Source of the DNA: Candidatus Electrothrix yaqonensis | GTDB taxonomy: Bacteria; Desulfobacterota; Desulfobulbia; Desulfobulbales; Desulfobulbaceae | Assembly: GCA_047651235.1 (NCBI GenBank) | Contig: CP178758.1 | Location: 870,001-902,000, forward strand | Direction: 5' to 3' | Length of the DNA: 32,000 nucleotides | Part shown: positions 4,079-20,269 of the stretch, in pieces | Position numbering within the stretch: the first letter of the stretch is position 1 | How the letters are laid out: the number at the start of each line of letters is the position of its first letter | Made by a program: the position numbers and the translations under genes | The notes under the pieces: generated by a model | Seen by the model: the letters and a program-made list of their open reading frames with translations, nothing else | Database searches by the model: none | Told to the model about the DNA's origin: nothing

Positions 4079-4185
4079 TATAGCTGGAGCAGTATAAACT
4101 GAATACAGGATCAGCTATCTGAAAGGCGTGAAGGCAAAACTTATGCCTCTTGTGGGCATATTCAAATTATGTTGCTCCAGCTATA
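4079..4185 (+). mobile_element. 107-bp MITE, copy B
   Basis: Identical to 18245-18351. It sits in the left arm of IS701-like copy 1, and about 50 bp of IS sequence present in copy 2 (about 8350-8403) are missing next to it. Confidence 0.8.
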
Positions 4186-4232
4186 TCAAAAAAATACCCG
4201 TCAATCGCCCTGATTATAACTTTATTCTTTTT

Positions 4233-5221
4233 ATGAACGCTCCCAGCCCCGAAAAAAGAAGTCCCCATGACAAATTCTTTGAGTTGACCGGCATCGCCCG
4301 GCAACTTACGTCTTTTCACGAAAGATATCATCATTTTTTTAAGAGACATACGGTAAGTTTGTCAGATAAAGCATTCCAATACTTGAAAGGTTTATTCCAG
4401 GCTGACAAAAAAACATGGAACGTATGGAGGAAAAGGTTCCGGGCGTTAAATATGAGCCCCTCCAGTATTTTCTTTCCGAATCGAACTGGGATTGGCGTCC
4501 TGTAAACAACCAAGTAGCTAAAGATGCGGATAACATTTTTGGAGGAAAGGAAGATAGCGCTCTTTTTATTGATGAATCCGGGATACCCAAAAAGGGTAAA
4601 ATGTCTGTTGGGGTTTCTCGTCAATGGTGCGGGCAGCTTGGTAAAACCGACAACTGTCAAGTAGTTCTACTTTGGCGATCATAAACATAACTAGCTTATT
4701 TTTATTAAGTATTTAAAAACCCCTGTTTTTAGTATTATTAATATTATTAAATAGTTAATGGTATGGTCACCAAAGTAGAATTAGTTGTCAGACGTGAGGT
4801 TAAGTCCCCGAAAAAAATTAAATATAGCCTAAGTAATGCGGAAAGTAACACGTCAACAAGACGACTTGCATATATGCAAGCTCAACGATATTGGGTTGAA
4901 CGGCCATTTCAGGATGCAAAAAATGAATGTGGAATGGGTGATTATCAGGCTCGGGGATGGCTGGCTTGGCATCATCATATGACTATGGTCATGATGGCCA
5001 TGTTGTTTATGGTCGAGCAACGATTATACCATCAAGTCGGTGTCCCGTTATTGAGTTGCGCTGATATAACAACATTACTCAAGTCAATTCTTCCACGTCG
5101 AGATGTAAACGAAGATGAAGTTATAAGACAGCTTCGTCAACGGCATGAAAAGAGGCAAGCTTCGATTGATTTCGCATATGAGAAACAACCGAATTGCAAA
5201 TTATTACCACAGCCTTTGTGA
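4233..5221 (+). pseudogene. IS701 family DDE transposase, disrupted (frameshift plus internal deletion)
   Basis: N-terminal MNAPSPEKRS...; then MERMEEKVPGVKYEPLQYFLSESNWDW...ALFIDESGIPKKG...SRQWCGQLGKTDNCQ in another frame. The C-terminal part RYWVERPFQDAKNECGMGDYQARGWLAWHHH resumes after the nested element. The segment carrying the middle catalytic Asp is missing. Confidence 0.7.
4665..4780. mobile_element. ~115-bp AT-rich MITE with IS701-like termini, nested in copy 1
   Basis: Termini TTCTACTTTGGCGATCAT ... ATGGTCACCAAAGTAGAA form an inverted repeat (2 mismatches in 18). They resemble the IS ends TTCTACTTTGTCAACCAT (8279) and CCAAAGTAGAA (9885, 5235). Confidence 0.55.
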
Positions 5222-5235
5222 GTGCCAAAGTAGAA

Positions 5236-5435
5236 TTAATCGTCTCGTCCATAGGCGAACCCGCCGTGTGATTTTTCAGCACTGCGAAAAATGCGTCATC
5301 AAGGCCGATGGCGGTCGAGAGGACGGATTTACGTCCCCCGCCCGGTTTGCGAATTCGTTCTTCTTTTTCAGACAGGCTGCCGTAAAAATTACGCATTCGC
5401 GTTTCTATCTCAGGAGAATATGTTTTTATCTTCAT
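5236..5435 (-). pseudogene. ISAzo13-type transposase, N-terminal fragment cut by IS701-like copy 1
   Basis: MKIKTYSPEIETRMRNFYGSLSEKEERIRKPGGGRKSVLS...LKNHTAGSPMDE matches the N-terminal GGGRK...GDPM region of ISAzo13-family transposases as I recall it. Homology stops at the IS right end (5235). Confidence 0.55.
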
Positions 5436-5760
5436 AACCGGATGAGAATAAACGCAACTATGAAATTGTCAATGACCTGTCAGCAAGTTCCGTTGTTATT
5501 AAATTTTCATTCCTTATGAAACCGTAAGGTTCTCCGACTGGGCCCTGATTTTTCAGAGTTCTTTTCAAGATAACCTCTTTTTGTCCTGCCTGAAAAGCAA
5601 ATACTCCCCGCATCAATGTGGAAGCAAAACCTGTTGCACTCTTTTTACAGCCCTGTTTAAATACATAACCACGAAATTCTGCTTGAACATACAGGTCTTA
5701 CCCTGTCCGATTTTCCATTCAGATCATGCCCTGAGAACAAACAGGGAAAAGGAAGCTGTC

Positions 5761-7914
5761 GTGATACATGACGCCACCCTCGGTATAGCCGTTCTGCTGG
5801 CTGCCGGACTTTTTGTTGCCAAACTGGCCCAGCTCCTCCGTCTCCCGTCGGTGACCGGCTTTATTCTTGCCGGACTGCTGCTGGGCGAGTCAGGCATCGG
5901 GCTGATCACTGTTGACCTGATAGGCCATCAGCTGGATCATTTCACCAGTATCGCCCTGATGCTGATCGCCTTCGGCATCGGTGAACATGTGGAGCTGCGC
6001 CGCCTTGACGGCATGGGCCGCGATGTTGCCTATATATCGGTGATTCAGGCTGCAGCCGCTTTTCTCCTAGTCCTGCTTGCCGCCCTGCCGACCACTTGGC
6101 TGGTCTCCGGCACCGAGGAAATCACGCGGGATCAGGTGGTTCTCTCCGTGCTTCTCGGCGCGATCGCCGTGGCCACTGCACCGGCAGCCATTCTCCATGT
6201 CACACGGGAGCTGGGCACACGCGGTCCCATGACCTCCACCCTTATGGCCGTGGTTGCGGTGGATGACGCCATTGCCATCATGATCTTCGGGATAGCTGTT
6301 TCCACGGCCCATAACCTCACCGGCACGGACGGACTTTCCCTGCAGTCGCTCCTGTTCTGTCTTTACGAAATCGGCGGTTCTCTGATCGCCGGTGTCATCA
6401 CAGGATGTCTTATCGGTTTCATTCTGGACAAGCTGCGCAACCGGGGTGAAATGCTGACAGCCGGACTGGCCCTGCTCCTGCTCTGCGGCGAGCTGACCCG
6501 GCTGCTCCATCTCTCCCCCCTGCTGGCAGGCATGATGACCGGTTTTGTGATGATCAACCATGCGGAACGGGACGTCCGGCTGTTCCGGATCATCAACGGC
6601 TTTGAGCCGCCGATCTATGTCATGTTTTTCACCCTGGCCGGTGTGCATCTGGATCTCTCCGCCCTGCGGCTGGCCGGGTGGGTTGGGATAGCCTATTTTC
6701 TGGCCAGAATTCTGGGAAAATACAGCGGCAGCTGGCTTGGTGCCTATCTGTCCGGCGCAGAAAAAAATGTACGTAACTTCCTCGGCCTCTCGCTGATCCC
6801 CCAGGCCGGGGTGGCTATCGGCTTTGTCTTTATGGTCAGTACAGACCCGAAGCTGGCTGCCTGGTCGGATACCATCACCCCGGTGGTCCTGGCCGGAGTG
6901 GTCCTGTCCGAGCTGTTCGGTCCGCTGCTGGTCCGTATTACGGTCGAAAAAGCCGGAGAAATCGGCCCGGATCAGGCCCGCAGTACGTCCAGTTCCGCAA
7001 TCTCCCGGTTTTTCGGATTCAGCACAGGCAAGGACGACAACCCCACTCTGCCCCCGTGGCAGGAAAATACGCTGCATCCGTCAGGTTCCCCTGCAGGGAC
7101 AGTGCTCGTCGGTACCTGCCATTTTGCCACTGCCAGAGCACTGACTAGGGTGGCGACTATTCTGGCGCATCATTTTGACTCCCTTCCCCTAGCTGTCCGG
7201 GTGCACTGCAGGACAGAAAATGCAGAAAACGGAAAAAACGGGCAGCTGACTGCGGAAGAACAGCAGGATCTCTTTCTGCCGGAAACCGATGAGGCGGCAT
7301 TGTTAGGTTATCCCCTGCAGACTAAGGTTATATACCACGAACGGGCCTCGGCCCTGATTGCCGCAACAGAAGAGGAAAATATCCGAGCCCTGGTCCTCGG
7401 TTATCCCCTCGGCAGAACTCCGCTGAAATTCCGGAAAATACTTGACCCGGTGGTGGCCAATGTCCGCTGTCCGGTGATTGCTGTCCGTTTTGTCGGCACA
7501 ATGACCTGGGAACGTATCCTGATTCCGTTTATCCTGCCGGAAGAGCTGGATGAGCTGCTGCCGGTTATTGAGGCGCTGGTGACCTCATGTCAGCCGAAAC
7601 TGACCTTTCACCACCTCCTTTACGCGGACAGCACCAAGGATGAACGACGGAGCAGGGAAAAAGAACTGGAGCAATGGGCGCGGTCCACGTTTTTTGACGC
7701 CCGTGAAATCACCTGTATTGCCGAAATAACCGAATCCCGGCGGGAATCAATCCTGACCGAAGCCCGGCGCCATGATCTGATCATTCTGAAAGGCATGCGG
7801 ACCGCCGGGCTGCAGCGCAGAATTTTCGGTTCGTTGACTGATGTGGTGGTGAAAAACTGCAGAAATCCGGTTTTTGTAGTATATCCTGCTGAGAGAGCGC
7901 ATAATCATTTGTGA
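5761..7914 (+). CDS. CPA2-family cation:proton antiporter fused to tandem universal-stress-protein-like domains
   Basis: Likely GTG start at 5761 (GGAAAAGGAAG upstream). Multi-TM Kef/NapA-like N-terminal ~400 aa (LRLPSVTGFILAGLLLGESGIGL...). The C-terminal ~270 aa has two USP-like units (VLVGTCHFATARAL...; ERILIPFILPEE...LIILKGMRTAGLQRRIFGSLTDVVVKNCRNPVFVV). Confidence 0.8.
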   Translation: MIHDATLGIAVLLAAGLFVAKLAQLLRLPSVTGFILAGLLLGESGIGLITVDLIGHQLDHFTSIALMLIAFGIGEHVELRRLDGMGRDVAYISVIQAAAAFLLVLLAALPTTWLVSGTEEITRDQVVLSVLLGAIAVATAPAAILHVTRELGTRGPMTSTLMAVVAVDDAIAIMIFGIAVSTAHNLTGTDGLSLQSLLFCLYEIGGSLIAGVITGCLIGFILDKLRNRGEMLTAGLALLLLCGELTRLLHLSPLLAGMMTGFVMINHAERDVRLFRIINGFEPPIYVMFFTLAGVHLDLSALRLAGWVGIAYFLARILGKYSGSWLGAYLSGAEKNVRNFLGLSLIPQAGVAIGFVFMVSTDPKLAAWSDTITPVVLAGVVLSELFGPLLVRITVEKAGEIGPDQARSTSSSAISRFFGFSTGKDDNPTLPPWQENTLHPSGSPAGTVLVGTCHFATARALTRVATILAHHFDSLPLAVRVHCRTENAENGKNGQLTAEEQQDLFLPETDEAALLGYPLQTKVIYHERASALIAATEEENIRALVLGYPLGRTPLKFRKILDPVVANVRCPVIAVRFVGTMTWERILIPFILPEELDELLPVIEALVTSCQPKLTFHHLLYADSTKDERRSREKELEQWARSTFFDAREITCIAEITESRRESILTEARRHDLIILKGMRTAGLQRRIFGSLTDVVVKNCRNPVFVVYPAERAHNHL

Positions 7915-7916
7915 AG

Positions 7917-8117
7917 ATGGCTAATCGAGAACAGCTGAACATACTCTGGCGAGGGGTTGCGGCGTGGAATGCGTGGCGCGAGGAGCATCCTGATGCGGAA
8001 ATTGATTTAAGCGGAGCAAATCTGGATAGGAGGGATTTGAGCGGAGCGAATTTTAGGAAGGCGAATGTTTGTGGGGTGAGTTTCATATCTGCGGACCTTG
8101 TAAAAATAGATTTTTAA
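7917..8117 (+). CDS. pentapeptide-repeat protein, N-terminal fragment
   Basis: MANREQLNILWRGVAAWNAWREEHPDAEIDLSGANLDRRDLSGANFRKANVCGVSF is a typical N-terminus of pentapeptide-repeat proteins. The ORF stops 3 nt before the inverted-repeat element at 8121. Confidence 0.6.
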   Translation: MANREQLNILWRGVAAWNAWREEHPDAEIDLSGANLDRRDLSGANFRKANVCGVSFISADLVKIDF

Positions 8118-8120
8118 TGC

Positions 8121-8244
8121 GAATTAGGGGTTGAAATCCATAACACAAAATCAACAAGATAAAACTGAAAAAATCTGCAGAATCGGAACAGTTTTTCTGT
8201 AACTATCTGTTTTTGCTGGGGCCGAATAATCCAACTCCTAATTC
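8121..8244. mobile_element. 124-bp inverted-repeat (MITE-like) element
   Basis: Termini GAATTAGGGGTTG ... CAACTCCTAATTC (12/13 complementary). The ends and the inner GGATTT/GTTGATTTTGT strings resemble the 20402-20519 element. No target duplication seen. Confidence 0.45.
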
Positions 8245-8278
8245 ACATTTTTACGGAGCTATTATCGGGGATGATTAT

Positions 8279-9885
8279 TTCTACTTTGTCAACCATAACC
8301 TTTTGATCTATTTGTAAAAACTTCTTACAATATCCGGATAAAGTTGTATCTTTCATTAGGAAAATTTTATCGCTTTTTGATCAAGCTAGCACCTGATAAC
8401 AGCTATCAAAAAAATACCCGTCAATCGCCCTGATTATAACTTTATTCTTTTTATGAACGCTCCCAGCCCCGAAAAAAGAAGTCCCCATGACAAATTCTTT
8501 GAGTTGACCGGCATCGCCCGGCAACTTACGTCTTTTCACGAAAGATATCATCATTTTTTTAAGAGACATACGGTAAGTTTGTCAGATAAAGCATTCCAAT
8601 ACTTGAAAGGTTTATTCCAGTCTGACAAAAAAACATGGAACGTATGGAGGAAAAGGTTCCGGGCGTTAAATATGAGCCCCTCCAGTATTTTCTTTCCGAA
8701 TCGAACTGGGATTGGCGTCCTGTAAACAACCACGTAGCTAAAGATGCGGATAACATTTTTGGAGGAAAGGAAGATAGCGCTCTTTTTATTGATGAATCCG
8801 GGATACCCAAAAAGGGTAAAATGTCTGTTGGGGTTTCTCGTCAATGGTGCGGGCAGCTTGGTAAAACCGACAACTGTCAAGTAGTAGTGTTTGCAACTTT
8901 GGGATATGGTCGCTTTTCAACGCCGATCGACTGTCGGCTGTATTTACCGAAAAGCTGGACGGATGACAAGGAACGTTGTCTTAAGGCTAAGATTCCCGCC
9001 GACAAAATTGTTTTCAAAACAAAGCATGAACAGGCTCTTGACATGGTCTTCCATGCGCGAAAGAATGGCGTTCGTTTTAACTGGGTGGGTTGTGATGGTT
9101 TTTACGGGAAGAATTCTCAATTTCTTCGGAAACTTGATAATAACGATGAAAAGTTCATGGCAGATGTTCATAAAGACCAAATAATTTATAATTTATATTG
9201 AAGATCCCAACCCTGTCGTTCCAAAAGCAAAATCGAACAAAGGGAAACGCCCGAGCAAGCTCGAAGCACAAAAAGAAGGCATACGTGTTGATAAATGGGT
9301 GATGCAACAACTTAATAATGCATGGAAACGGGTGAAAGTTCGAAATACGACCAAAGGCAAACTCATTGTGGATATTCTGCATAGGGAAGTGGCTATGGGA
9401 CGGTAAAGAGGCTGAAGCAAGAAAATGGCATTTAGTTGTCAGACATGAGGTTAAGTCCCCGAAAAAAATTAAATATAGCCTAAGTAATGCGGAAAGTAAC
9501 ACGTCAACAAGACGACTTGCATATATGCAAGCTCAACGATATTGGGTTGAACGGCCATTTCAGGATGCAAAAAATGAATGTGGAATGGGTGATTATCAGG
9601 CTCGGGGATGGCTGGCTTGGCATCATCATATGACTATGGTCATGATGGCCATGTTGTTTATGGTCGAGCAACGATTATACCATCAAGTCGGTGTCCCGTT
9701 ATTGAGTTGCGCTGATATAACAACATTACTCAAGTCAATTTTCCACGTCGAGATGTAAACGAAGATGAAGTTATAAGACAGCTTTGTCAACGGCATGAAA
9801 AGAGGCAAGCTTCGATTGATTTCGCATATGAGAAACAACGGAATTGCAAATTATTACCACAGCCTTTGTGAGTGCCAAAGTAGAA
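8279..9885 (+). mobile_element. IS701-like element, copy 2 (full length ~1.6 kb, transposase frameshifted)
   Basis: IRL TTCTACTTTGTCAACCAT at 8279 and IRR ...GCCAAAGTAGAA ending at 9885. It carries an IS701-type DDE transposase reading frame. Confidence 0.8.
8453..9871 (+). pseudogene. IS701 family DDE transposase, multiple frameshifts
   Basis: The reading frame must switch at the A7 run near 8626-8632, near 9190, near 9400, and at a 1-nt deletion near 9740 relative to copy 1. DDE candidates are FIDESG, WVGCDGFYG and YWVERPF. Confidence 0.75.
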
Positions 9886-9887
9886 GT

Positions 9888-9965
9888 AAAGAAAATATGA
9901 AAATTCAATTCGACGAGTTTCTGCCGAAGTGGAATTATGCCGCTGTTCCGTCAGGACGGCTTTGA
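9888..9965 (+). pseudogene. possible C-terminal remnant of an ISAzo13-type transposase
   Basis: KENMKIQFDEFLPKWNYAAVPSGRL* carries the F-x3-WNY C-terminal signature that I associate with ISAzo13-family transposases. It is squeezed between two IS ends. Confidence 0.35.
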
Positions 9966-10075
9966 ATCCCGTAGTTATTAGACCTCCTGCAAAACTTGGT
10001 GATTTGACAGAAACGGCGGATGCTGATATTTTTTCGGTCACTTTTTCGATTATCAACCCCGGAGGTCTGAAAATC

Positions 10076-10303
10076 ATGCTCACATTCGAAAAACTCTCCC
10101 GCCGCCCTGAAACATTCCGCCGTCTGACCGGTGTCGATATTGATCTTTTCAACGGAATGACGGAAAAGATCCGCCCTTTATGGGAAGAGCGGAGAGATAA
10201 TTTTGAAAAGGGCGGGAGAAAGCACAACTTGGAAGGAGCTGAAAACCACCTTCTCGCCATGCTCCTGCGAAGTCTTCGCTTATCTATTACCGTTGTTACG
10301 TGA
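10076..10303 (+). CDS. IS5-family transposase, N-terminal HTH part (orfA)
   Basis: GGAGG SD, then MLTFEKLSRRPETFRRLTGVDIDLFNGMTEKIRPLWEE...HLLAMLL (HTH_Tnp_4-like). The frame ends where LIYYRCYVTYEFLSFFF continues in another frame. Confidence 0.65.
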   Translation: MLTFEKLSRRPETFRRLTGVDIDLFNGMTEKIRPLWEERRDNFEKGGRKHNLEGAENHLLAMLLRSLRLSITVVT

Positions 10304-10944
10304 CATATGAGTTCCTCAGTTTTTTCTTCGATTCCGATGAGACGACGGTGATGCGCGCAGTGAAACGGATGGAAAAAATCGCGGTACGGGTGATTCATAT
10401 TGAAAAAAAGCGTGAAATCACACGGGAAGATGCGGAATACCTGATAATCGATGCGACGGAGCAGCCGGTTCAGCGCCTGAAGAAAGGACAGAAGAAGTAT
10501 TACAGCGGAAAGAAGGGAAAACACACGCTCGGAACGCAGTTTACCGCCGGTCCCGACGGACGGATTTTTTCGGTTTCGGCGTCGTATCCCGGAAGTGTTC
10601 ATGATTTCAGGATATATAAGGAACAGAAGGGGCGGGAGCGTTTTCACGGTATTCCGAAGAAGGCCGACAGCGGATATCAGGGAATCGCGGCATATGACCG
10701 GCGCGCCGAAATTCCCTTTAAAAAGCCCCGGAACGGTGAACTGACCGCCGAACAGAAGGCATATAATCTTGATTTATCGAAAAAACGTATCAAAGTTGAG
10801 CATGTCATAAGAGAGGTGAAGGTATTTAAAATCATGTCGGAAACATACCGGAACAGGCTTAAAGGCCATAATATAAAGAAAAATATCATATCCGGCATAG
10901 TGAATATGAAGGTTGCGGCACGGAAAATGAAGAAAGCTGCCTGA
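10300..10944 (+). CDS. IS5-family DDE_Tnp_4 transposase catalytic part (orfB)
   Basis: YLIIDATEQPVQR, KKADSGYQG and KKRIKVEHVIREVKVFKI give a D, D, E triad in the Harbinger/DDE_Tnp_4 pattern. The true coding frame opens near 10270 and needs a frameshift from orfA, either programmed or a mutation. Confidence 0.75.
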   Translation: MTYEFLSFFFDSDETTVMRAVKRMEKIAVRVIHIEKKREITREDAEYLIIDATEQPVQRLKKGQKKYYSGKKGKHTLGTQFTAGPDGRIFSVSASYPGSVHDFRIYKEQKGRERFHGIPKKADSGYQGIAAYDRRAEIPFKKPRNGELTAEQKAYNLDLSKKRIKVEHVIREVKVFKIMSETYRNRLKGHNIKKNIISGIVNMKVAARKMKKAA

Positions 10945-11032
10945 AGCGGAAAATTTTGAAAAAGGGAAAAACCTCACCGCCTGAGAAGAACAGGCAGTTC
11001 TGCAGGAGGTCTAAAGCAACATAGGAATTACA

Positions 11033-11074
11033 GGCGGCACTGTCCCTCACGGGATGGTGTCGCTTTTTTTATTT
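11033..11074 (+). terminator. Rho-independent terminator
   Basis: GGCGGCACTGTCCC-tcac-GGGATGGTGTCGC forms a 13-bp stem including 3 G-U pairs, followed by TTTTTTTATTT. It lies just right of the IS5 end and upstream of the EACC1/STAND operon. Confidence 0.55.
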
Positions 11075-11180
11075 TACCAGCTGATGTTACGCAGCCGAAA
11101 CGCAAAATCGGCAGATTCCACGTTTTGGGTGTCTCGTAACTTACTGATTTTTTATTTGCGTGCGTAACATCAGTTACCAG
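11075..11180. repeat. short inverted-repeat element (possible MITE)
   Basis: CTGATGTTACGCA (11081-11093) is the exact complement of TGCGTAACATCAG (11161-11173). It shares the GTTACGCAG string with the termini of the 20402-20519 element. Confidence 0.35.
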
Positions 11181-11375
11181 CTTGGGTTATCTTCTGATCG
11201 GGAAGTATTGTCCATTGCATCATCCGGCCTACCTGCTTTAAGGCATTTCTATCGTTTTTTTCTCCCAATCAAGCTATATTCTTTGTTGAATGTAACTTTT
11301 TGCCGACATGTCTGTACTGTTTAGAACATAAAAAAACAAGCGCAATTTATCCACAATAAATCCTACGAGAAAACC

Positions 11376-11753
11376 ATGAATGCCCATATAAAGTTTAAGG
11401 AAAATTCCCCCTCTGGAGAAAGTTCCTACCGTTTAAATAGTCTTGCAGAGTTTATAGAGCAAGAGGCTGACATCCCCGTGCAACTTGAAAAAGGTGAGCC
11501 CCAAAAGGGGAGTAAAACAGACTTGACTATCGCGCTAAGTATTGCTGGACTAGCCCTGTCTGCGGTTGCAACTCTTGTCTCAGTTCTCTCGTATTGGAAA
11601 TCACAACAACCGAACTACTCGGTTTCAATAAAGTGCGGCAATACGACAATCCAGCTCAATAATGTTTCTTCAGATGAGCTTCAAGCTGTAATCAAAAAAC
11701 TGGAAGAACAAAACCATTCCTCTGACCTAACCGTTCTTCTTGCGGAAGAATAA
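11376..11753 (+). CDS. EACC1-like (effector-associated constant component) single-TM protein
   Basis: 125 aa. N-terminal SSYRLNSLAEFIEQEADIPVQLEKGEPQKG, central TM LTIALSIAGLALSAVATLVSVLSYW, then YSVSIKCGNTTIQLNNVSSDELQAVIKKLEE. This order matches the EACC1 pattern as I recall it. The stop is 3 nt before the next ATG. Confidence 0.6.
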   Translation: MNAHIKFKENSPSGESSYRLNSLAEFIEQEADIPVQLEKGEPQKGSKTDLTIALSIAGLALSAVATLVSVLSYWKSQQPNYSVSIKCGNTTIQLNNVSSDELQAVIKKLEEQNHSSDLTVLLAEE

Positions 11754-11756
11754 CAC

Positions 11757-14700
11757 ATGTCTTCCGCAGAAAATAATCCGAGACGCATAGCTGTTGTTGT
11801 AAACTCTCTGACCGGAGACGAACTGAAAGCTGGCAATAGAGATGTGTCACGCATCTACAGCCTTCTTACAAACCATGAACTCGGGGCATGTTCAATTGAT
11901 AGCCCTAAGCCACTCCATGAATGTAAGAGTTGCAATGAATTAAGGGGGAGTGTTGCACCGGTAATTGAAAACTGGCATTTGACTGACCAGTTTATATTTT
12001 ATTTCTCAGGACATGGAACAGTCCTAAATGGAAGGTATTGTTTGCAATTAGGTGCTTCTTCTGAAATTCTTCCTTTTGACTGCTTAATGATTGACCTAGA
12101 AGTTAAAGGAGTACAACGGGCTATTATCATTCTTGATGCTTGTCATAGTGGTGCCGCAATACAGGGAAGCAAGAATTCTGATATCCTTGCCTCAATCAAT
12201 AAGGGGACTATTCCAAAAGGAATTGCTATCATAGCCTCATCCAGGGCCAGTCAAACAAGTCATGAAATGCCGGATGGCTCGGCGAGTGTTTTTACAGACC
12301 TTTTATGCAACGGTATTGAAACAGGCTTAGATCTGCAATGTACTGCTAACGGGCTGATCTCTGTCGATGACATTGTCTCTTATATCAGCAATAAGCTGAA
12401 AGCAGATAAAAAGTATTCATCATTTCTGCAACAGCCTGTATTCAAGATTGATAAAGCGGAGCGACCTATTTGGCTTGCAAAGAACAAAAGCGGAAAAACC
12501 TCAAAAAATAAAACAACACGCATTCAACAGAACATCAGAACACCAGAGGAACTGAAATTACTCTACGAGAAGACGGTCTATACAGAACATCCCTGCTTGG
12601 GAGCTTCATTGGATGATTTAGATTGGTCATTAGTAGAGAGTTATGCAACGGAACTTGGTGAAGATAAAGGCGACATGCAAGATAGAGAGATTGTGCTCAC
12701 AAAGCTCAAATTTTTCTCTCCCCTTGAAAATAATCCTACATTACATCAGTCAGCTGTACTGTGCTTTGCTATGTATCCAGAGAGGATGTATTCTCAGGCT
12801 AAATCAAATTTTGTCCTTGGAGATCAAGGAGAGGAATCCTTTGAACGACATGAAGTGAAAGGGCCGCTGAGTATTCAGATAGAGGAATTAATAAGAAAGA
12901 CCAAGCAGTCTCTCCGCAAAACGTCATCAATAGCGGATAGCGGAAAACGAGTAGAACAGTACGAGATTGATCAGAATCTAATACGAGAGCTTATCTCTAA
13001 TGCAGTTACTCATAGAGATTACCGATCCAACGGTGTCGTTAAAGTAACCGTTAATTCAGATTATATAGAAATTCAGAGTCCTGGTTCCTTTCCAGGCCAC
13101 TTGTCATGGGCAGAACTTCTCAAGTGTTCAGCTTATCCCGTTTCCAAACCTGTAAACGGAGCAATCTCTCAGTATTTGGCTCAGTTATTGGTATTTGAGG
13201 GAATAGGGCGTGGTTTTCGTATAATTCACAATTACATAACCGAGCATGGCAAGGAGAGCATTAAGTTTAAAGAACTACCTGGCCCGACAACTTCGGTGCG
13301 AATATTACGCCCTCGTGATCGAAATTTTGCTCATGGAGTGGTTACTGCGGCAGGTGAACAAAATATTGTTCAAGGAGCAGGTTCGCTAGGCAGGCAGGTC
13401 AATATTGCTCAAGATGTGAAAGGAGATGGCAATATATTCTCTGGCAGAGCAGAAAATATAACCTATCATCATTATCCCCGTCCTTCTGTTCCCCAACTCT
13501 TTCCGCCGCAAGACGACATCTTTCTTCATCGCGAGGAGGAACTCACTTGGCTGTATGAGCACCTGCATCCTGATAGGGTGGTTGCCATCTGTGGGCCGGG
13601 AGGGATGGGAAAGAGTGCCTTAGCCGCCCATGCGGTGCGTAAGTTACCCGCTGACCGCTTCTCGGACGGTATAGTCTTTCATTCCTTTTATCATCAGCCG
13701 GATACCACAATGGCCCTCCAGACTATTGCTCAAGCTTTTGGTATTGCAGCGGAGGCAGACCTAGAGCAGCTTGTGCGTAATGCCTTGATTGGTAAGCAAG
13801 CTTTGCTCATCCTTGACGGTACAGAAGAGGCTGAGGATCTTCGGGCCGTGTTAGATCTGCGAGGTGGCTGTGGCGTGCTCATCACCACTAGGAAAAAGAG
13901 TGACTCTGGATCACTTCGCCTAGAGTTGTCGCCCCTGTCTGATGACCAAGCTGAAGACATGTTGCGTGCTTGGGGCGAAATCAGTGACAACCAGCAAACC
14001 ATAGAACAGCTCTGTAGTTTGTTGGGTGGTTGGCCCATAGCACTGCGCCTAGCCGGGAACTATTTACGTAGCACCGGCGAGTCTGCAACGGACTACCTAC
14101 GCTGGTTACAGGAGGAGCCGTTCAAAGAGCTGGGGGATAGTGAGGAGCATCAGCGTGACAATGCAACCCTACTGCTCAAGCAGAGCACGGCCCAGGTGGG
14201 GGAGGATGCCCGCCTTGTGCTGGAACTGGCAGGCACCTCGGCTTATGATCTGCTGTCCGTTGCGCCCATGACCGTTCTGCTGGAGGACGATGAACTCCGC
14301 ACCCGCAAGGCCGTGAACGAGCTGGTCAATTACGGCCTGCTGGAACGCCGGGGAGAACGCCTGCATATAGGCCATGCCCTGATCCATGAGTACGCAGCCC
14401 GGAACCTGCCCCTGAGCAGGAAGGCACTGGCGCGGGTGGCCAGCTATTATATAGCTTGGTGCAGGGAACAGAGTGCTGCCGGCGTACCGGGTTATGCCCT
14501 GCTGGATGATGAGCGAACACATTGCCTGCGCCTGATACGTGCCTGTTTGGACAGTGGGCTGTGGCAGGAGGTGAAAGGGTTGGTTGAAGCAATCTCGCAG
14601 TACCTTGACCGGCAGGGTTGGTGGACAGAGCGACTGACCGCCTTGGAGATGCTCCTGACTGCGACCCGCAAGGCTGGCGAACGCATGGATGAAGGAGAAT

Positions 14701-15350
14701 GTCTGAATAACTTGGGCTACACCTGTTGGCGACGCGGGGAGTTTGAGCAGGCTCTTGCATGGCACGAACAAAGCCTGCCCATAATCCGTGAGCTGAGAGA
14801 CCGACAAGGAGAAGGCGTACTTCTGAATGACATTGGCAATATTTATAGAGAACAAGGCAAGTATGAGCAGGCCCTGCAATATTATCAGCAGAGTTTGAGC
14901 ATCCGGCAGGAAGTCGATGACCGGGAGGGGGCAGGGGTCGCACTAAACAATATTGGTCAGCTTTATTATTACCAAGGCAACTACGAGCAAGCCTTGCAGT
15001 ATTATGAGCAATGTTTACCCGTCATGCGAGAAGCAGGCGATAAAATCGGGGAAGGGACAACCCTGAACAACATTGCCACTATCCGCCGTACCCGAGGTGA
15101 GCCGAGCAAGGCTCTGGAGTATCATCAACAAGCCTTGACTATCAGCCGTGAGCTTGGTGACCGGGCCGAAGAAGCACAAAGCTGCTTAAATATCGGTCTT
15201 ACCTATCATGACTTGGACGATCTAGTTCAGGCCGAAGAGCACATTGCCTTGGCTGTGGAGATCGCAGAGGCCATCGGATATCCTGCTTTAGAGGAATGGC
15301 GGGAGGAGTTGGGGAAGGTTCGAGAAAAGCGACAAGACAAAATGATATAA
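11757..15350 (+). CDS. caspase (C14) / AlbA_2-HATPase_c_4-like / NB-ARC STAND NTPase / TPR fusion protein
   Basis: Caspase dyad FYFSGHG (His86, 12012-12014) and ILDACHSG (Cys129, 12141-12143). Middle module with LISNAVTHRDY, IEIQSPG and FEGIGRGFRI. Walker A GPGGMGKS (13593-13616), Walker B LLILDG (Asp687, 13815-13817), LITTRKK, GGWPIALRLAG. Five 40-aa TPR units at the C-terminus. Confidence 0.9.
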   Translation: MSSAENNPRRIAVVVNSLTGDELKAGNRDVSRIYSLLTNHELGACSIDSPKPLHECKSCNELRGSVAPVIENWHLTDQFIFYFSGHGTVLNGRYCLQLGASSEILPFDCLMIDLEVKGVQRAIIILDACHSGAAIQGSKNSDILASINKGTIPKGIAIIASSRASQTSHEMPDGSASVFTDLLCNGIETGLDLQCTANGLISVDDIVSYISNKLKADKKYSSFLQQPVFKIDKAERPIWLAKNKSGKTSKNKTTRIQQNIRTPEELKLLYEKTVYTEHPCLGASLDDLDWSLVESYATELGEDKGDMQDREIVLTKLKFFSPLENNPTLHQSAVLCFAMYPERMYSQAKSNFVLGDQGEESFERHEVKGPLSIQIEELIRKTKQSLRKTSSIADSGKRVEQYEIDQNLIRELISNAVTHRDYRSNGVVKVTVNSDYIEIQSPGSFPGHLSWAELLKCSAYPVSKPVNGAISQYLAQLLVFEGIGRGFRIIHNYITEHGKESIKFKELPGPTTSVRILRPRDRNFAHGVVTAAGEQNIVQGAGSLGRQVNIAQDVKGDGNIFSGRAENITYHHYPRPSVPQLFPPQDDIFLHREEELTWLYEHLHPDRVVAICGPGGMGKSALAAHAVRKLPADRFSDGIVFHSFYHQPDTTMALQTIAQAFGIAAEADLEQLVRNALIGKQALLILDGTEEAEDLRAVLDLRGGCGVLITTRKKSDSGSLRLELSPLSDDQAEDMLRAWGEISDNQQTIEQLCSLLGGWPIALRLAGNYLRSTGESATDYLRWLQEEPFKELGDSEEHQRDNATLLLKQSTAQVGEDARLVLELAGTSAYDLLSVAPMTVLLEDDELRTRKAVNELVNYGLLERRGERLHIGHALIHEYAARNLPLSRKALARVASYYIAWCREQSAAGVPGYALLDDERTHCLRLIRACLDSGLWQEVKGLVEAISQYLDRQGWWTERLTALEMLLTATRKAGERMDEGECLNNLGYTCWRRGEFEQALAWHEQSLPIIRELRDRQGEGVLLNDIGNIYREQGKYEQALQYYQQSLSIRQEVDDREGAGVALNNIGQLYYYQGNYEQALQYYEQCLPVMREAGDKIGEGTTLNNIATIRRTRGEPSKALEYHQQALTISRELGDRAEEAQSCLNIGLTYHDLDDLVQAEEHIALAVEIAEAIGYPALEEWREELGKVREKRQDKMI
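14697..15296 (+). repeat. tandem coding repeat: five ~120-nt TPR units
   Basis: Units begin ECLNNLGYTCW, VLLNDIGNIY, VALNNIGQLYY, TTLNNIATIR and QSCLNIGLTYH, each with a xYEQALQYYxQ-type core and a RExxDRxGEG linker. Confidence 0.7.
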
Positions 15351-15447
15351 GATGGCGGGCGGCGCTGGGACCAGTGTGATATTCATCGCCATGCTGCCTC
15401 AGCACATACGGGCTGCTGTTGAATAAGGCGATGTCTCCTGTGGGGGA

Positions 15448-16293
15448 TCATCGCCTTGTTTCGTCTCTGATCGCCTCAATTTCATCCTTTGATAAACCTG
15501 TCAGGGTTGAGATTAACTGGATATCAAGCCCTTGCTTCAGCCCGTTGCGTACAATTTCTCTCCCCCTTGCAGCCTTTCCCTCTTCATAATAGGTGTCCAT
15601 GGAGCTTTTCAGATCCCAGTAATCTTTTAAACTCTCCTGATAATCCTGTTGTTCCAAGGGATCAAACTTGGCCAGCTCAGCAATCTCAATCAGTCGTTTA
15701 AAAATGCCTGCGGCGAGTTCTTTGGGATGATCTTGGAGGCGATGAAGATTTTTAAAGGCATAGAGCCAGCGGTCATAATCTGAGCGCAGCTCCTCAAGGG
15801 CCTTTTTGAATTTAGGAATCTCCAGATAGATAAAGGTCAATTTATCGTAAAAGACCTGCCTGGTCTCCTGTTCCATCAATTTTACCCGATGATGAAGCTT
15901 GTCCTGATCAGCATCATCAAAACAGAAATCCAGGATGCCGATGGTGTAGACGCTCTTCAGCTCGTATTTCCAGTCTTTACCCTTTGCGGCCTGTTCCTGC
16001 ACGGCAAAGGTGGAATAGTAGAGACTGCGATCTTTGAAGAATTTCTGTTTGACCCGTTGTATCTCAACGATAAATTTCTCGCCCTGTTCATTGGTGCAGT
16101 AGAGGTCAAAGACGGCGTTTCGGTCCCTTGTTGTTTTGCCCAGGCGTTCACCGTTGAGGTAGGTGAGGTGCTTTATCTGTTCTTTATCATCCAGGAGTTC
16201 GTTTAAGAAAGCAATCAGCAGGTCCTTGTTGGGTTCTTCGCCGAAGACCTTTTTGAAGCCGTAATCTGTGAACAGATTGATATAGCGATCCAT
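15448..16293 (-). CDS. Rpn family recombination-promoting nuclease / PD-(D/E)XK putative transposase
   Basis: MDRYINLFTDYGFKKVFGEEPNKDLLIAFLNELL...AVFDLYCTNEQGEKFIVEIQRVKQ...IGILDF is the classic TIGR01784/Rpn-type N-terminus and D...E-x-Q/K nuclease core. Confidence 0.85.
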   Translation of the reverse strand: MDRYINLFTDYGFKKVFGEEPNKDLLIAFLNELLDDKEQIKHLTYLNGERLGKTTRDRNAVFDLYCTNEQGEKFIVEIQRVKQKFFKDRSLYYSTFAVQEQAAKGKDWKYELKSVYTIGILDFCFDDADQDKLHHRVKLMEQETRQVFYDKLTFIYLEIPKFKKALEELRSDYDRWLYAFKNLHRLQDHPKELAAGIFKRLIEIAELAKFDPLEQQDYQESLKDYWDLKSSMDTYYEEGKAARGREIVRNGLKQGLDIQLISTLTGLSKDEIEAIRDETRR

Positions 16294-16392
16294 CTCAGTT
16301 TATAATAGAGTGCTGATTGTCGGTTCACCGCTCAGCTGCGGATCAATTGTACAGTACCCTGCCCGTCGGGACAGGCAGGCCCTGAATCTGAA

Positions 16393-17979
16393 TCAGTTAT
16401 GCTCCCTGGTCTTGTGAAAGACAATATCCGGGAACAGCTCGGCAATGTGATTGAGGCGCCACTGCCCGTCTGCCAGAAAGGCCAGATGACCTTCCGCATC
16501 ATAGGCGAGATTGCCCTGATTTCTGGCCTCAAATGCCTTGAGTTTTTTGGGATCGTCGCAGCTGATCCAGCGTGCCAGGTTGTAGTTGACGGTTTCGTAG
16601 ATTGCATCCACGTTGTATTCGGCCTTGAGCCGGGCCATGGTCACCTCGAACTGCAGCACACCCACAGCACCAAGGATGTAATCGCTGCCCATGATCGGTC
16701 GGAAGAGCTGAACTGCGCCTTCTTCGGCCATCTGCATCAGACCCTTGTGCAGCTGCTTGGTTTTGAGCGGATTTTTCAGCAGCACCCGGCGGAAATGTTC
16801 CGGGGCAAAGTTGGGAATCCCGGTGAATTTAAGCGGTTCCTTGTCCGTAAAGGTATCGCCTATCTTGATGGTCCCGTGATTGTGGATGCCGATGATATCA
16901 CCCGGATAGGCTTCATCCACATTGGTGCGGTCCTGAGCCATAAACACGGTGGCCTTGCTCAGATTCACCTCTTTGCCTAACCGGTGGTGTTTCACCTTCA
17001 TGCCTCTGGTGAACTTGCCGGAACAGATGCGGAAAAAGGCGATCCGGTCCCGATGGGCCGGGTCCATGTTGGCCTGAATTTTAAAGGTGAAGCCGCTGAA
17101 AGTCTCTTCTTCCGGCGAGACCGCACGGGTGATTGCCGCACGGGGGCCGGGAGCTGGCGAGAGCTCGACAAAATTGTCCAGCAGCTCTTTGACCCCGAAA
17201 TTGTTGATGGCGCTGCCGAAAAACACCGGGGTCTGCCCGGCGTTGAGATAGTGTTCGTATTCAAAGGGATCGGCTGCACCCTGGAGCAGTTCGACATCCT
17301 CCCGCAGCTGATCAGCATCATGACCAAGCAGCTCGTCCAGCCGGGGATCATCCAGCCCCCTGACCACCACCCGGTCTTCCGGCCGGGTATTCTGGCTCGG
17401 GGTGAACAGGTTGAGTTCGTTGCGGTTCAGGTCGTACACACCCTTGAAGCCCTTGCCCATACCCACGGGCCAGGAAAGCGGTGCGCACTCGATCTGGAGT
17501 TTTTCTTCAATATCAGCCAGGATATCCAGCGGGTCCATGCCGTCCCGATCCAGCTTGTTGATAAAGGTGATGATCGGGGTGTCGCGCATCCGGCAGACCT
17601 CCATCAGCTTGGTGGTCTGGGCCTCCACGCCCTTGGCCGAATCAATCACCATCAGGGCCGAGTCCACGGCTGTAAGCACCCGGTAGGTGTCCTCGGAAAA
17701 GTCCTGATGGCCCGGAGTGTCCAGTAGGTTGATCTCAAAATCCCGGTAATTGAATTTCATCACCGAGGTGGTCACGGAAATGCCGCGTTCCTGCTCGATG
17801 GACATCCAGTCACTGGTGGCGTGGTTCGCTGTCTTGCGCGATTTGACCGCCCCGGCCATTTTAATGGCCCCGCCGAAGAGAAGGAGCTTTTCCGTCAGGG
17901 TGGTCTTGCCTGCATCCGGGTGGCTGATAATGCCGAAGGTGCGGCGTCGCTGTATTTCTTTTGTCAATCTGCTGCTCAT
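16393..17979 (-). CDS. prfC: peptide chain release factor 3
   Basis: [58 protein letters not shown] and INKLDRDG are translational GTPase motifs in the RF3 arrangement. 528 aa. Confidence 0.95.
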
Positions 17980-18049
17980 AGAATATCTGTGATAGGGATT
18001 TACCCGGTAAAAATAATGTAGTCAGAACGACCCGCTGCTCATAGCATTG

Positions 18050-18244
18050 TTAATAAAACTCCCAGGCCGTGACGGCCAGCAGCAGGCTCAGCAGCATCGG
18101 CCAGTAGGAGAGTTTGAAGAATATATCCTTCTCTCCAAAGAGACCGTGCCCTTTGCCGAATGAGACCAGGAATCTCTTGGTCGGCGTCATGATCACAGCA
18201 AAATAGATAACAAAAAAGAAATATTCAAGATAAAACAGCTGTCC
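18050..18244 (-). pseudogene. detached C-terminal fragment (M3-M4) of the Cache-pLGIC gene
   Basis: GQLFYLEYFFFVIYFAVIMTPTKRF...YWPMLLSLLLAVTAWEFY* has no start codon of its own. It is in frame with 18352-20269 once the MITE plus one TA is removed. Confidence 0.7.
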
Positions 18245-18351
18245 TATAGCTGGAGCAGTATAAACTGAATACAGGATCAGCTATCTGAAAGGCGTGAAGG
18301 CAAAACTTATGCCTCTTGTGGGCATATTCAAATTATGTTGCTCCAGCTATA
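18245..18351 (+). mobile_element. 107-bp MITE, copy C, inserted in the pLGIC gene
   Basis: Identical to 4079-4185 and flanked by TA. It supplies the TAG stop (18347-18349) of the truncated upstream ORF. Confidence 0.85.
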
Positions 18352-20269
18352 TGGAAATACTGCGTCGTATTGCCAGATGAGAAAAAACAACCACAAAAAA
18401 CAGAGAAGAACAGATACCCAGCACCTTGCTGATATCAGTGTCAGAAGGGAGAAGAATGATAAAAAACAGAATGATACTTACCACGATCAGCGGTGTAAGG
18501 TTGGAAATGAAGGCATTGATAAAAACTCTTCGTATACCGATATGATAGGATAATACCGGCAGGTCATTATGTTGGTAACCCTTTGTTGTAAAAAAATCTG
18601 TTTTTTTATCTCTTTTTGAAAAGGCAAAAAACGTTTTGGTCACTTCCCAGCCGGGAAGATCGATTTTTTCGTTCAGTCCGGGAAAGAGTACTGATGCCCC
18701 GAAATGTTCGCTGTCAAAATCAGGCACAAAAACTACCCGATCACTTTTTCGGGAGAACATCTGTATGGTCAGCTCCTCGATTTCCAGAGGATACTTTGCA
18801 GAGGAGATATAGGCCGGTATGGTGGCATGAAAGCTGGACAGAACGACTTTTTCATCCTTCGTCTCCCTGATGTCCAGACTGCCGATAGTCTGTTGCTTGG
18901 CCGGAAAAAAATGAATATTGCTCAGGTCATCATGAAAGTCGGCCGGATACCGCCGCCATATATGTCCGGACATGGACAGCTCGTTTGCAGTGGAAAAATC
19001 CAGTGTTTCAATATAAATCCCCGTAGGAATAAAAATTGGCCTGTCAGGATCTTTTTCCTGATAACGCTGCGTATAGTACACTGTTTGTTTTTCCACAGCC
19101 TGCTTGTTTTTCAGCTCCCTGGCCTCGGGATATGGTTTTTTATAGTACGTCAAAGAGGTTTTCCAGATTATGCCGATACCGGCTGCCAGGATCAGCGATA
19201 GCGCAGCAACAAAACGCCAGGCAACTTCTTTGGATAGCACTCTGTTTTCCTGACACCTGATCTGGATCAGAATCAGCAGGGTGGTCAGAAAAACAACCGC
19301 GCAGCAGACCATCAGAATGAGTCGATGCCGTAATTTATCTCTATTGATGACGATATCGTTTTTCATAAAGGTATTCTGCACAGACCAGCCGGAACTCGGC
19401 ACAGGCTCGGCAATCAGCCAGGACGCCTCACCGGTTGTCGTGCTTGTATGATCCAGAACCGCGCTCTCACCGAGCTTCGCCTTTTCTGCGAGTTCCAGTC
19501 TGTTGGAATCGTCTTTTATTTTCGCAATCTGCTGCAGCGTCTTTCCCGAAACAACATATTCTTTCTTCGGATGATAAAGATATGTCCCTGCAGCAGTTGT
19601 CAGACCGCCGAATCCTTTCCCGGAGCTTTCCACAGTCTTCTGCATGACAGTATTGAAATATTCCAGAGAAAGGTCTACAGCGACAACACCGGCAGGTTTC
19701 TTCTCCGCGCCGTCCTGCTCCGGCTGATAAAACAGGGCGGAATAGGTTACCATGCGGACATTGCGGGCTGTATCCCAATACGGTTCACTCCAGCTGTTTT
19801 TTTTCTCCTGAACAGGCGCCAGATACCAGCAGGAAAAGTAATCATCAATTTCATCATTCTTAACAGCCGTTACCGCAGCATCCTCCTGTCCGTTTTTCCC
19901 ATGCCAGCCTGCAGAATATAATTTCATTTCCGATGTATAGGCAGGAGGTTGAAAGACAATTCCTGCCCCGGCAAAGGCTGAATTCTCTTTGAGTACTTTG
20001 CGCAGTTTCTTGCCAGCTACTTCTTTTACAGCCTTATCCGTCTTTTTTTGAGATTTCAGATCAGCTGTTATCTCTGCAGCAACAGATTCAGCAGAATCCA
20101 TGACCTGCCGGGCAAGAGTATCCAGCTCCTGTGCCGCTCTCAGGGTTATTGCCTGAAAATTATTTTTTGATTTTCTATACACCTTTTCTTTATAAAAAAC
20201 GTAATCATATATCATAAAGACCATGCCGGACAGACTTAACAGACAAACGAAAATTAAGAATCTACGCAT
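18347..20269 (-). CDS. dCache sensor fused to a pentameric ligand-gated ion channel (pLGIC/GLIC-like), truncated after M2 by a MITE
   Basis: ATG at 20269 with AGGAG 7 nt upstream. N-terminal TM, then Cache motifs (CWYLAPVQEKKNSWSEPYWDTARNVRMVTYSALF, AGVVAVDLSLEYF, GFGGLTTAAGTYLYHP). Two TMs, then a GLIC-like ECD (PIFIPTGIYIETLDF, AKYPLEIEELTIQMFS) and M1-M2 (LSYHIGIRRVFINAFISNLTPLIVV...). Confidence 0.7.
   Translation of the reverse strand: MRRFLIFVCLLSLSGMVFMIYDYVFYKEKVYRKSKNNFQAITLRAAQELDTLARQVMDSAESVAAEITADLKSQKKTDKAVKEVAGKKLRKVLKENSAFAGAGIVFQPPAYTSEMKLYSAGWHGKNGQEDAAVTAVKNDEIDDYFSCWYLAPVQEKKNSWSEPYWDTARNVRMVTYSALFYQPEQDGAEKKPAGVVAVDLSLEYFNTVMQKTVESSGKGFGGLTTAAGTYLYHPKKEYVVSGKTLQQIAKIKDDSNRLELAEKAKLGESAVLDHTSTTTGEASWLIAEPVPSSGWSVQNTFMKNDIVINRDKLRHRLILMVCCAVVFLTTLLILIQIRCQENRVLSKEVAWRFVAALSLILAAGIGIIWKTSLTYYKKPYPEARELKNKQAVEKQTVYYTQRYQEKDPDRPIFIPTGIYIETLDFSTANELSMSGHIWRRYPADFHDDLSNIHFFPAKQQTIGSLDIRETKDEKVVLSSFHATIPAYISSAKYPLEIEELTIQMFSRKSDRVVFVPDFDSEHFGASVLFPGLNEKIDLPGWEVTKTFFAFSKRDKKTDFFTTKGYQHNDLPVLSYHIGIRRVFINAFISNLTPLIVVSIILFFIILLPSDTDISKVLGICSSLFFVVVFSHLAIRRSISI

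Follow-up and report, generated by a model that had tools for sequence, protein, structure and literature searches.

A stretch of 32,000 nucleotides (nt) from Candidatus Electrothrix yaqonensis (assembly GCA_047651235.1, contig CP178758.1, positions 870,001 to 902,000; hereafter, the window) carries two adjacent genes that we interpret, with a probability of roughly 0.7, as an intact EACC1-caspase cell-suicide module of the abortive-infection type that acts in a cable bacterium by the mechanism of the Ktedonobacter racemifer KrAvs12 pair. The upstream gene (window positions 11376..11753) encodes a 125-aa protein of the EACC1 family, predicted to be a latent pore-forming pro-toxin, and the downstream gene (11757..15350) encodes a 1197-aa protein that combines a caspase domain, a HATPase_c_4 module, an NB-ARC domain, and tetratricopeptide repeats (TPRs). 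The domains, intact catalytic motifs, a conserved loop, the pairing of the genes, and their co-inheritance were observed directly, and the remaining mechanism is drawn from homology.

Both open reading frames (ORFs) are intact, occupy the forward (+) strand, as do all features within them, and are separated by 3 nt. The first-pass annotation of this DNA, made from the letters alone, gave the same overall span, protein lengths, and spacing, and every motif position that it quoted, including H86, C129, and K619, is correct. The small protein is 100% identical to ACL93V_04080 from the metagenome-assembled genome (MAG) of the cable bacterium Candidatus Electrothrix sp. YB6, and the large protein is 100% identical to a "tetratricopeptide repeat protein" (P0012) of the YB6 MAG. 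Among the families named in the first-pass annotation, the Pfam models of Peptidase_C14, HATPase_c_4, NB-ARC, and TPR_12 score above their cut-offs; Pfam EACC1 falls below its cut-off, and AlbA_2 gives no match.

Systems of this kind are already known, computationally since 2020 and experimentally from a 2025 preprint. Kaur et al. (eLife 2020, PMC7159879) defined the pair of EACC1 and caspase-X as "System 4" and proposed that EACC1 is a membrane sensor. Evans et al. (bioRxiv preprint 2025, PMC12642450) characterised the K. racemifer pair, in which a phage tail connector sets off caspase-Avs12 (KrAvs12); the protease then splits EACC1 into fragments of 5.7 and 7.1 kDa, putatively at Asp49. Toxicity resides in the C-terminal fragment only; the 5.7-kDa N-terminal fragment is nontoxic and was modelled as autoinhibitory. 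Liposomes are permeabilised by cleaved EACC1 only, and the C152A substitution and the deletion of EACC1 each abolish KrAvs12 toxicity (PMC12642450). The first-pass annotation had proposed a two-gene conflict or abortive-infection module built from EACC1 and a caspase-STAND-TPR protein, which agrees with the domain matches, the near-universal synteny, and both of these studies, but its statement that no such system had been characterised is overturned by the preprint. A sub-clade, overlooked by curated thresholds, in which the caspase is joined to a conserved HATPase_c_4 module lacking AlbA_2, and the cable-bacterium host are not described in the literature searched.

The small protein as a divergent EACC1

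The small protein matches the Pfam EACC1 profile over positions 8 to 106 of 107, at an E value of 0.0037 and 17.7 bits (cut-off, 23.6), and an NCBIfam scan returned no EACC1 model. Because the direct Pfam score lies under the cut-off, assignment to EACC1 depends on transitive profile evidence. Eight of 11 close homologues give an equally weak Pfam match. A profile of the small-protein family, run against 1.84 billion cluster representatives, recovered 236 proteins, nearly all of 120 to 130 aa, and in 45 of the 150 representatives scanned, Pfam EACC1 was matched (best E value, 6e-8), with no other family recurring. One member, P0244, scores 33 bits on Pfam EACC1 and is thus above the cut-off, and hhalign aligns it with the profile of the Electrothrix clade at a probability of 97.6% (E value, 4e-12). 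The small ORF upstream of a Polyangiaceae homologue of the large protein (locus L006) also exceeds the EACC1 cut-off, at 29.3 bits. A further search, with the EACC1 profile as query, yielded hardly any new proteins, and the K. racemifer EACC1 was not among its matches. The transitive profiles thus provide strong evidence that the small protein is a divergent EACC1, so that the identity first given to it stands by this route and not by direct Pfam or NCBIfam assignment.

A single hydrophobic segment, as the first-pass annotation had noted, is present in the small protein (Kyte-Doolittle 19-residue maximum of 2.23 at aa 52 to 70). This segment, aa 50 to 73 (11523..11594; LTIALSIAGLALSAVATLVSVLSY), is rich in small residues, is the best conserved part of the family, and fits the "TM helix with a patch of small residues" that Kaur et al. 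described for EACC1 (PMC7159879). An AlphaFold2 (AF2) monomer model built with the family alignment is compact and alpha+beta (predicted local distance difference test [pLDDT], 90.6; predicted template modelling score [pTM], 0.82), and its elements run strand 1, helix 1, strand 2, a loop at aa 40 to 50, strand 3, helix 2, strands 4 and 5, helix 3, and strand 6. The first of these are strands at aa 3 to 7, 36 to 39, and 51 to 56 and helices at aa 14 to 31 and 61 to 77, of which the strand at 51 to 56 and the helix at 61 to 77 hold the hydrophobic segment. In the model the segment is buried within the monomer, as expected of a latent toxin. When the model was compared with the PDB by Foldseek, no similar solved structure, gasdermins included, was found. 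From the model and by analogy with the K. racemifer protein, aa 1 to 49 (11376..11522), a strand-helix-strand unit, are the predicted N-terminal autoinhibitory part.

A conserved loop, G45-S-K47-T-D49-L50 (11508..11525), is the predicted site of caspase cleavage, on the basis of family conservation, the model, and the results of Evans et al. In the model it connects strand 2 with the hydrophobic segment, and its motif, G-x-K/R-(D)-G-G-L, is the best conserved polar motif of the family: across 150 representatives the glycine is present in 125 and the lysine or arginine in 144, and an aspartate follows K/R in 91 of the 101 sequences that match the motif. A cut at D49 would yield fragments computed at 5.5 and 8.2 kDa. 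In one homologous locus (L091) the loop has K-E in place of K-D, which shows a looser constraint on the acid than on the lysine.

The caspase and the HATPase_c_4 module

The N-terminal domain of the large protein, aa 9 to 229 (11781..12443), matches Peptidase_C14 at an E value of 6.6e-11 and 42.8 bits (cut-off, 21.4). The His-Cys dyad reported in the first-pass annotation is intact, with H86 (12012-12014) in SGHG (aa 84 to 87) and C129 (12141-12143) in a metacaspase-type D127-A-C-H-S-G (aa 127 to 132), and in 48 homologues the conservation of G-H-G and D-x-C-x-S-G is 90% or higher. The closest solved sequence is that of Arabidopsis metacaspase-4, in which the histidine and the DxCHSG motif (there DSCHSG) align with those of the window protein. 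The NCBIfam model for the EACC1-associated type of caspase (NF047832) is matched over 193 of its 211 positions at an E value of 2.6e-22, with 79.3 bits against a cut-off of 140.

The caspase is followed by a conserved module, aa 254 to 520 (12516..13316), that Pfam, AF2, and Foldseek resolve into an alpha/beta linker domain and a GHKL-like HATPase_c_4 domain. The Pfam match to HATPase_c_4 covers aa 428 to 506 (13038-13274) at 30.9 to 33.1 bits (cut-off, 26). The AF2 model of aa 250 to 540 has a pLDDT of 87 and a pTM of 0.85, and its best Foldseek match in the PDB is 3LMM, the DIP2311 protein (E value, 1e-11 over 268 columns; template modelling score, 0.62), followed by the catalytic (GHKL) domains of histidine kinases and PDK. 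Across 48 sequences, E411, N415, A416, H419, R420, Y422, G443, E481, and G486 are invariant, and the invariant residues of the module form an E-x-x-x-N-A box and a G-x-G-x-G box resembling GHKL motifs I and III. In our reading, S-P-G stands in the module in place of the adenine-contacting Asp of GHKL motif II (D-x-G-x-G).

The first-pass annotation had named this region an AlbA_2-HATPase_c_4 module, of which one half survives. The HATPase_c_4 and linker domains are upheld by Pfam, by the fold of 3LMM, and by the motifs NAVTHRDY (aa 415 to 422), SPG (441 to 443), and EGIGRGF (481 to 487), but the AlbA_2/Schlafen family (PF04326) has no match at an E value of 1 or less in aa 242 to 591 and is recorded in none of the homologues of the large protein. 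An AlbA_2/Schlafen nuclease was accordingly rejected as a component of this protein. Generic AlbA_2-HATPase_c_4 proteins have AlbA_2 at residues ~15 to 130 and HATPase_c_4 at ~297 to 387. Residues 264 to 488 of the window protein align with residues 133 to 357 of a generic member whose AlbA_2 spans 15 to 129; the alignment begins beyond AlbA_2, indicating that the caspase occupies its position. The window protein therefore shares with these proteins, such as DIP2311 of Corynebacterium diphtheriae (3LMM, function unknown), a linker domain and HATPase_c_4 matched by Pfam and fold and the conserved motifs NAxxHRDY, SPG, and EGxGRGF. Unlike them, it is without the N-terminal SLFN_AlbA_2 and C-terminal winged helix-turn-helix domains, and has a caspase before the module and NB-ARC-TPR after it.

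No published study of this HATPase_c_4 module was found in the literature searched, and it goes unmentioned for EACC1-caspase systems in Kaur et al. (the paper and one supplementary file) and in Evans et al. Our best guess, which is speculative, is that it serves the protease as a second nucleotide- or ligand-binding element that is regulatory or dimerising.

The module also occurs in other arrangements. Behind the caspase it is duplicated in tandem at L009, L010, L017, L019, and L032 and in protein P0018. In a Thermoanaerobaculia MAG (L030), an ORF of 1907 aa (4137-9857) has the module followed by a CHAT protease, NB-ARC, and TPRs, with neither a C14 caspase nor an EACC1 neighbour, suggesting that the module is able to pair with another clan-CD protease. 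Two PADLOC models of Argonaute (pAgo)-associated systems (Aga_SIR2-PNTD1-PNTD2, at an E value of 1e-12, and a pAgo model) match aa 279 to 444, which comprise the linker domain and the start of HATPase_c_4, so the module may also be present in Argonaute-associated defence proteins.

Pairing and co-inheritance of the two genes

By BLAST, 86 homologues of the large protein fall into three tiers. Those of the first are full-length and alike in all four modules, with identities of 67 to 74% in Electrothrix relatives and 31 to 35% in Symploca, Okeania, Microcoleaceae, and Microcystis. The second comprises many proteins that share only aa 1 to ~520, at 43 to 52% identity, and then diverge, and the third some homologues that share only the caspase (aa 1 to ~250). 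The C-termini of relatives include NB-ARC-TPR, NACHT with FGE-sulfatase, NACHT with WD40 or HEAT, protein kinase, sigma54-AAA, FtsK, vWA, and CHAT. With aa 1 to ~520 shared and the C-termini varied, the constant part in this clade is the caspase plus the middle module.

The small gene accompanies the caspase almost without exception. All eight loci reached through homologues of the large protein (L001 to L008) have an EACC1 homologue immediately upstream, including L008, where the gene was uncalled and was recovered by six-frame translation. A scan of genomes with the single sequence of aa 1 to 520 as the query returned no matches; a scan for the middle module with an alignment query, in one genome per species, then gave 80 loci. 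In 27 of these a caspase is fused before the module, and EACC1 is adjacent in 25 of the 27; L015 has no upstream DNA, and L025 has no EACC1. At L032, EACC1 (~3733-4251) is divergent from the caspase gene, and at L066 an insertion sequence (IS; transposase ORFs at ~3495-4285) has entered between the two genes (region 2977-4285). EACC1 is beside none of the 53 loci that have the module without a caspase. Conversely, the caspase at L091 is fused straight to NACHT-HEAT without the module and has EACC1 upstream (E value, 2e-47), indicating that EACC1 tracks the caspase and not the module.

Over the informative, nonredundant loci with caspase and module, EACC1 is adjacent in 29 of 30, which bears out the co-conservation of the two ORFs across genomes that the first-pass annotation had named as a check. 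Pairwise identities of EACC1 and of the caspase are correlated over 31 loci (r = 0.85; none of 2000 Mantel permutations was as high), as fits inheritance as a unit. The sub-clade is widespread, spanning cyanobacteria, Chloroflexota, Bacteroidota, Planctomycetota, and myxobacteria, and it is missed by the current cut-offs of Pfam, NCBIfam, and PADLOC.

The linker, NB-ARC domain, and TPR array

The constant part of the large protein ends in a variable linker, aa 521 to 585 (13317..13511), recognised from the comparison of homologues, in which it differs in length and sequence, and from low pLDDT values where the model of aa 250 to 540 ends. Four degenerate repeats of ~11 residues centred on N-I (EQNIVQG, RQVNIAQD, GDGNIFSG, and AENITYHHY) occur in it, and N-I or H-I motifs of a similar kind are present in the otherwise hypervariable linkers of homologues.

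An NB-ARC STAND NTPase follows at aa 597 to 798 (13545..14150; E value, 4e-11; 43.1 bits against a cut-off of 23.5), with NACHT borderline. As the first-pass annotation had it, all of the motifs are present: Walker A GPGGMGKS (aa 613 to 620; 13593-13616) with K619, Walker B in LLILDG (683 to 688) with D687, the sensor-1 arginine in LITTR (708 to 712) with TTR712, and the GxP motif GGWPIAL (757 to 763). The NCBIfam FxSxx_TPR model matches aa 583 to 863, and the closest solved sequence is AfsR (8k60; E value, 1e-16). The C-terminal array, a predicted ligand sensor, consists, as first proposed, of five TPR units in an exact 40-residue register at aa ~978 to 1177 (14688..15287); TPR_12 is matched in three stretches at 133.7 bits (cut-off, 30.1), and TPR_10 and TPR_1 are matched in four stretches each.

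The large gene has a compositional step at nt ~13350 (aa ~520 to 530), where G+C content rises from ~0.42 to values of 0.53 to 0.61 (~0.54 for NB-ARC-TPR). G+C content at third codon positions (GC3) is 0.35 for EACC1, the caspase, and HATPase_c_4 and 0.55 for NB-ARC-TPR; the window's core genes have 0.64 to 0.72. This change falls at the point where homologues exchange one C-terminus for another, and both the Electrothrix relative L003 and L002 share it, which suggests an old chimeric junction.

Proposed mechanism and alternatives

If the pair works as KrAvs12 does, the C-terminal TPR array would recognise a trigger, probably a phage protein, and NB-ARC would then oligomerise in a nucleotide-dependent manner, as expected from STAND and caspase biology, gathering and so activating the N-terminal metacaspase-like domains. 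The protease would cut EACC1 within G45-S-K47-T-D49-L50, releasing the autoinhibitory N-terminal part (~5.5 kDa) from the C-terminal part (~8.2 kDa) with the hydrophobic segment, and the freed C-terminal fragments would build membrane pores that kill the cell, a step demonstrated for the K. racemifer homologue only. EACC1 is therefore best read, by this comparison, as a latent pore-forming effector cleaved by the caspase rather than as a passive membrane partner or sensor, which would make the caspase the activator and not the terminal effector. The first-pass pairing of a membrane EACC1 with a caspase effector thus holds for the two-gene arrangement but, given the cleavage results of Evans et al., not for the caspase as the agent of death.

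The window pair resembles several known systems. As in System 4 (PMC7159879), a small 5' gene encodes one small-residue-rich hydrophobic helix with alpha+beta flanks, and the 3' gene has the caspase first and then variable domains, including STAND NTPases and repeats, in multicellular hosts; the window clade differs in being centred on cyanobacteria, Chloroflexota, and the cable bacterium, in falling under the Pfam and NCBIfam cut-offs, and in a constant part that extends past the caspase to the HATPase_c_4 module of ~270 residues. As in the KrAvs12 pair, the gene that directly follows EACC1 encodes a caspase-like protease at its N-terminus and, fused to it, a STAND NTPase sensor, and the cut is predicted before the hydrophobic part (Asp49 there, K47 or D49 here), for predicted fragments of 5.5 and 8.2 kDa compared with 5.7 and 7.1 kDa. 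KrAvs12, whose trigger is the phage tail connector, is portrayed as a direct fusion of a caspase to Avs12, with no GHKL-like module reported. The Apaf-1 apoptosome, bacterial NLR-like and Avs proteins, and caspase-activated gasdermins have in common with the pair the logic of a repeat sensor, a STAND switch, a protease activated by induced proximity, and a cleaved autoinhibited pore former. The window protein differs from Apaf-1 in having protease and NTPase on one polypeptide with no CARD adaptor, and from gasdermins in that the pore former would be the 125-aa EACC1, for which Foldseek found no match among solved structures in the PDB.

Several points weigh against this reading. Neither the small ORF nor the caspase reaches the curated cut-off of its EACC1-specific model, and the support for the mechanism comes from a single preprint on a single homologue. 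The HATPase_c_4 module lies outside the published mechanism model, and the NB-ARC-TPR sensor may be unrelated to that of KrAvs12. A search of PADLOC-DB 2.0, in which Avs12 is not covered, gave no Avs/AVAST model or complete system and only generic TPR, caspase, and pAgo-associated-domain matches; the Avs- and Apaf-1-like logic seen in the first-pass annotation accordingly stands as a layout of effector, STAND NTPase, and repeat sensor (caspase, NB-ARC, and five TPRs in that order) but not as membership in a PADLOC Avs family. Finally, metacaspases with the DxCHSG signature generally prefer arginine or lysine at P1. Given the metacaspase-type D127-A-C129-H-S-G signature and the near-invariance of K47, cleavage may follow K47 instead of D49.

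The same biochemistry could serve a developmental or stress-induced programmed cell death in the filament, yielding ghost cells or fragmentation for dispersal, in place of phage defence, an alternative that we consider unlikely but worth weighing. The host is itself a multicellular cable bacterium, and the groups in which relatives of the system occur (cyanobacteria, Caldilineaceae, Saprospiraceae, and Polyangiaceae) are filamentous, colonial, or social, which counts in favour of such a role. So do the statistical tie of EACC1 systems to a multicellular habit (650 of 671 organisms; PMC7159879), the ghost cells of unknown origin and caspase-domain genes of unknown function in cable bacteria (PMC12163305), and the EACC1-DnaK fusions that hint at stress sensing (PMC12642450). 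However, the pair sits in an IS-rich accessory tract, its codon usage is foreign (GC3 of 0.35 to 0.55, compared with 0.64 to 0.72 in core genes), and the closest Electrothrix relative holds it in a different neighbourhood, all of which resembles a mobile defence gene more than a conserved developmental one, and the characterised homologue responds to a phage protein. These surroundings might instead suggest a decaying remnant without current function, flanked as it is by broken transposase genes and atypical in composition, but we regard this as very improbable: both ORFs are uninterrupted, the catalytic and nucleotide-binding motifs are all intact, the residues invariant over 48 homologues are retained, and the Electrothrix homologues at 67 to 74% identity keep both their full length and the same gene pair.

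The model of Kaur et al., in which EACC1 is a membrane sensor or anchor that activates the caspase and auto-processing frees C-terminal effector domains of the large protein (PMC7159879), would account for the strong conservation of the hydrophobic segment, and the variable, poorly structured linker after the constant cassette could be the region of autocleavage. Yet no cleavage motif in the linker is conserved across homologues; a "VKGDG" that resembles the EACC1 loop was considered as a candidate and rejected, being confined to Electrothrix sequences in a linker that is otherwise hypervariable. The C-terminal NB-ARC-TPR region here is a sensor and switch, not a toxic effector, the confident model of EACC1 is compact and alpha+beta and encloses the hydrophobic segment, and EACC1 was shown to be both the substrate and the toxic agent in K. 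racemifer (PMC12642450). Together these make the sensor model quite improbable for the window pair.

Taken as a pore system gated by a protease, the pair would extend EACC1 to cable bacteria, in which the origin of ghost cells and the function of caspase genes are open questions (PMC12163305). The caspase of this sub-clade also bears a conserved, unstudied GHKL-like domain with invariant residues resembling a nucleotide pocket, so the system offers a test bed for HATPase_c_4 function, and the conserved loop G-x-K-D-G-G-L is suited to mapping protease specificity. It is conceivable, though we think it doubtful, that the module is a second nucleotide-driven switch that dimerises or licenses the caspase (a dual-NTPase death sensor) and that in cable bacteria the EACC1 pore is the executioner of ghost cells or of programmed filament breakage, a multicellular death beyond phage defence alone. 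If that were true, the module would be the only switch in relatives without a STAND domain, in which caspase and module are joined to vWA or a kinase.

Genomic surroundings

The IS-rich accessory setting described in the first-pass annotation is confirmed, with IS remnants upstream of the operon and prfC and a PDDEXK_2/Rpn-family gene downstream. Upstream lie a DDE_5 transposase split into two ORFs (8635-9201 and 9366-9758), an IS5-like DDE_Tnp_4 element of two overlapping ORFs (9929-10303 and 10300-10944), and the remnant of an IS200-type Y1 transposase (3587-3979, - strand); ligA and a Na+/H+ exchanger-Usp gene are farther upstream. Between the IS5-like element and the operon is a strong terminator-like hairpin (11032..11065, + strand) with a 15-pair stem and a T run, separated from the EACC1 start codon by a 300-nt intergenic region. 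This promoter region contains an element of ~100 nt (11074-11189) resembling a miniature inverted-repeat transposable element, with perfect 13-nt inverted repeats (CTGATGTTACGCA and TGCGTAACATCAG) 67 nt apart and a direct repeat (TTACCAGC) on its flanks; it has no second copy in the window (2 matches, compared with 0.02 expected). An Rfam scan of 8000-18500 detected no RNA family, and a promoter scan, which gave fewer matches than shuffled sequence, was uninformative.

Downstream are the Rpn-family PDDEXK_2 gene, a putative transposase (15448-16293, - strand), and prfC (16393-17979, - strand). The PD-(D/E)XK neighbour noted in the first-pass annotation is thus present, but because it is absent beside the system in the eight gene lists (L001 to L008), it was rejected as a third component. 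Relatives show the pair in mobile or defence-island settings (phage capsid genes, toxin-antitoxin pairs, and integrases), and in the cyanobacterial relatives it adjoins phage capsid and cement genes, toxin-antitoxin pairs, and further markers of conflict systems, a TRADD-like_N and a HetE-N gene (L001, 283-1800 and 9646-10233; L002, 2882-3295). A phage-borne origin was considered and rejected, with viral contigs giving only 2 distant generic matches. Elsewhere in the window, a second low-G+C accessory patch (23589-26113, - strand; G+C of 0.35 at 25 to 26 kb) lies between glutamate-synthase-like genes and encodes a Fic/DOC protein alongside a Uma2 putative restriction endonuclease and an SDH-type ClpP-like serine protease, so that a further defence or toxin cluster may be present here.

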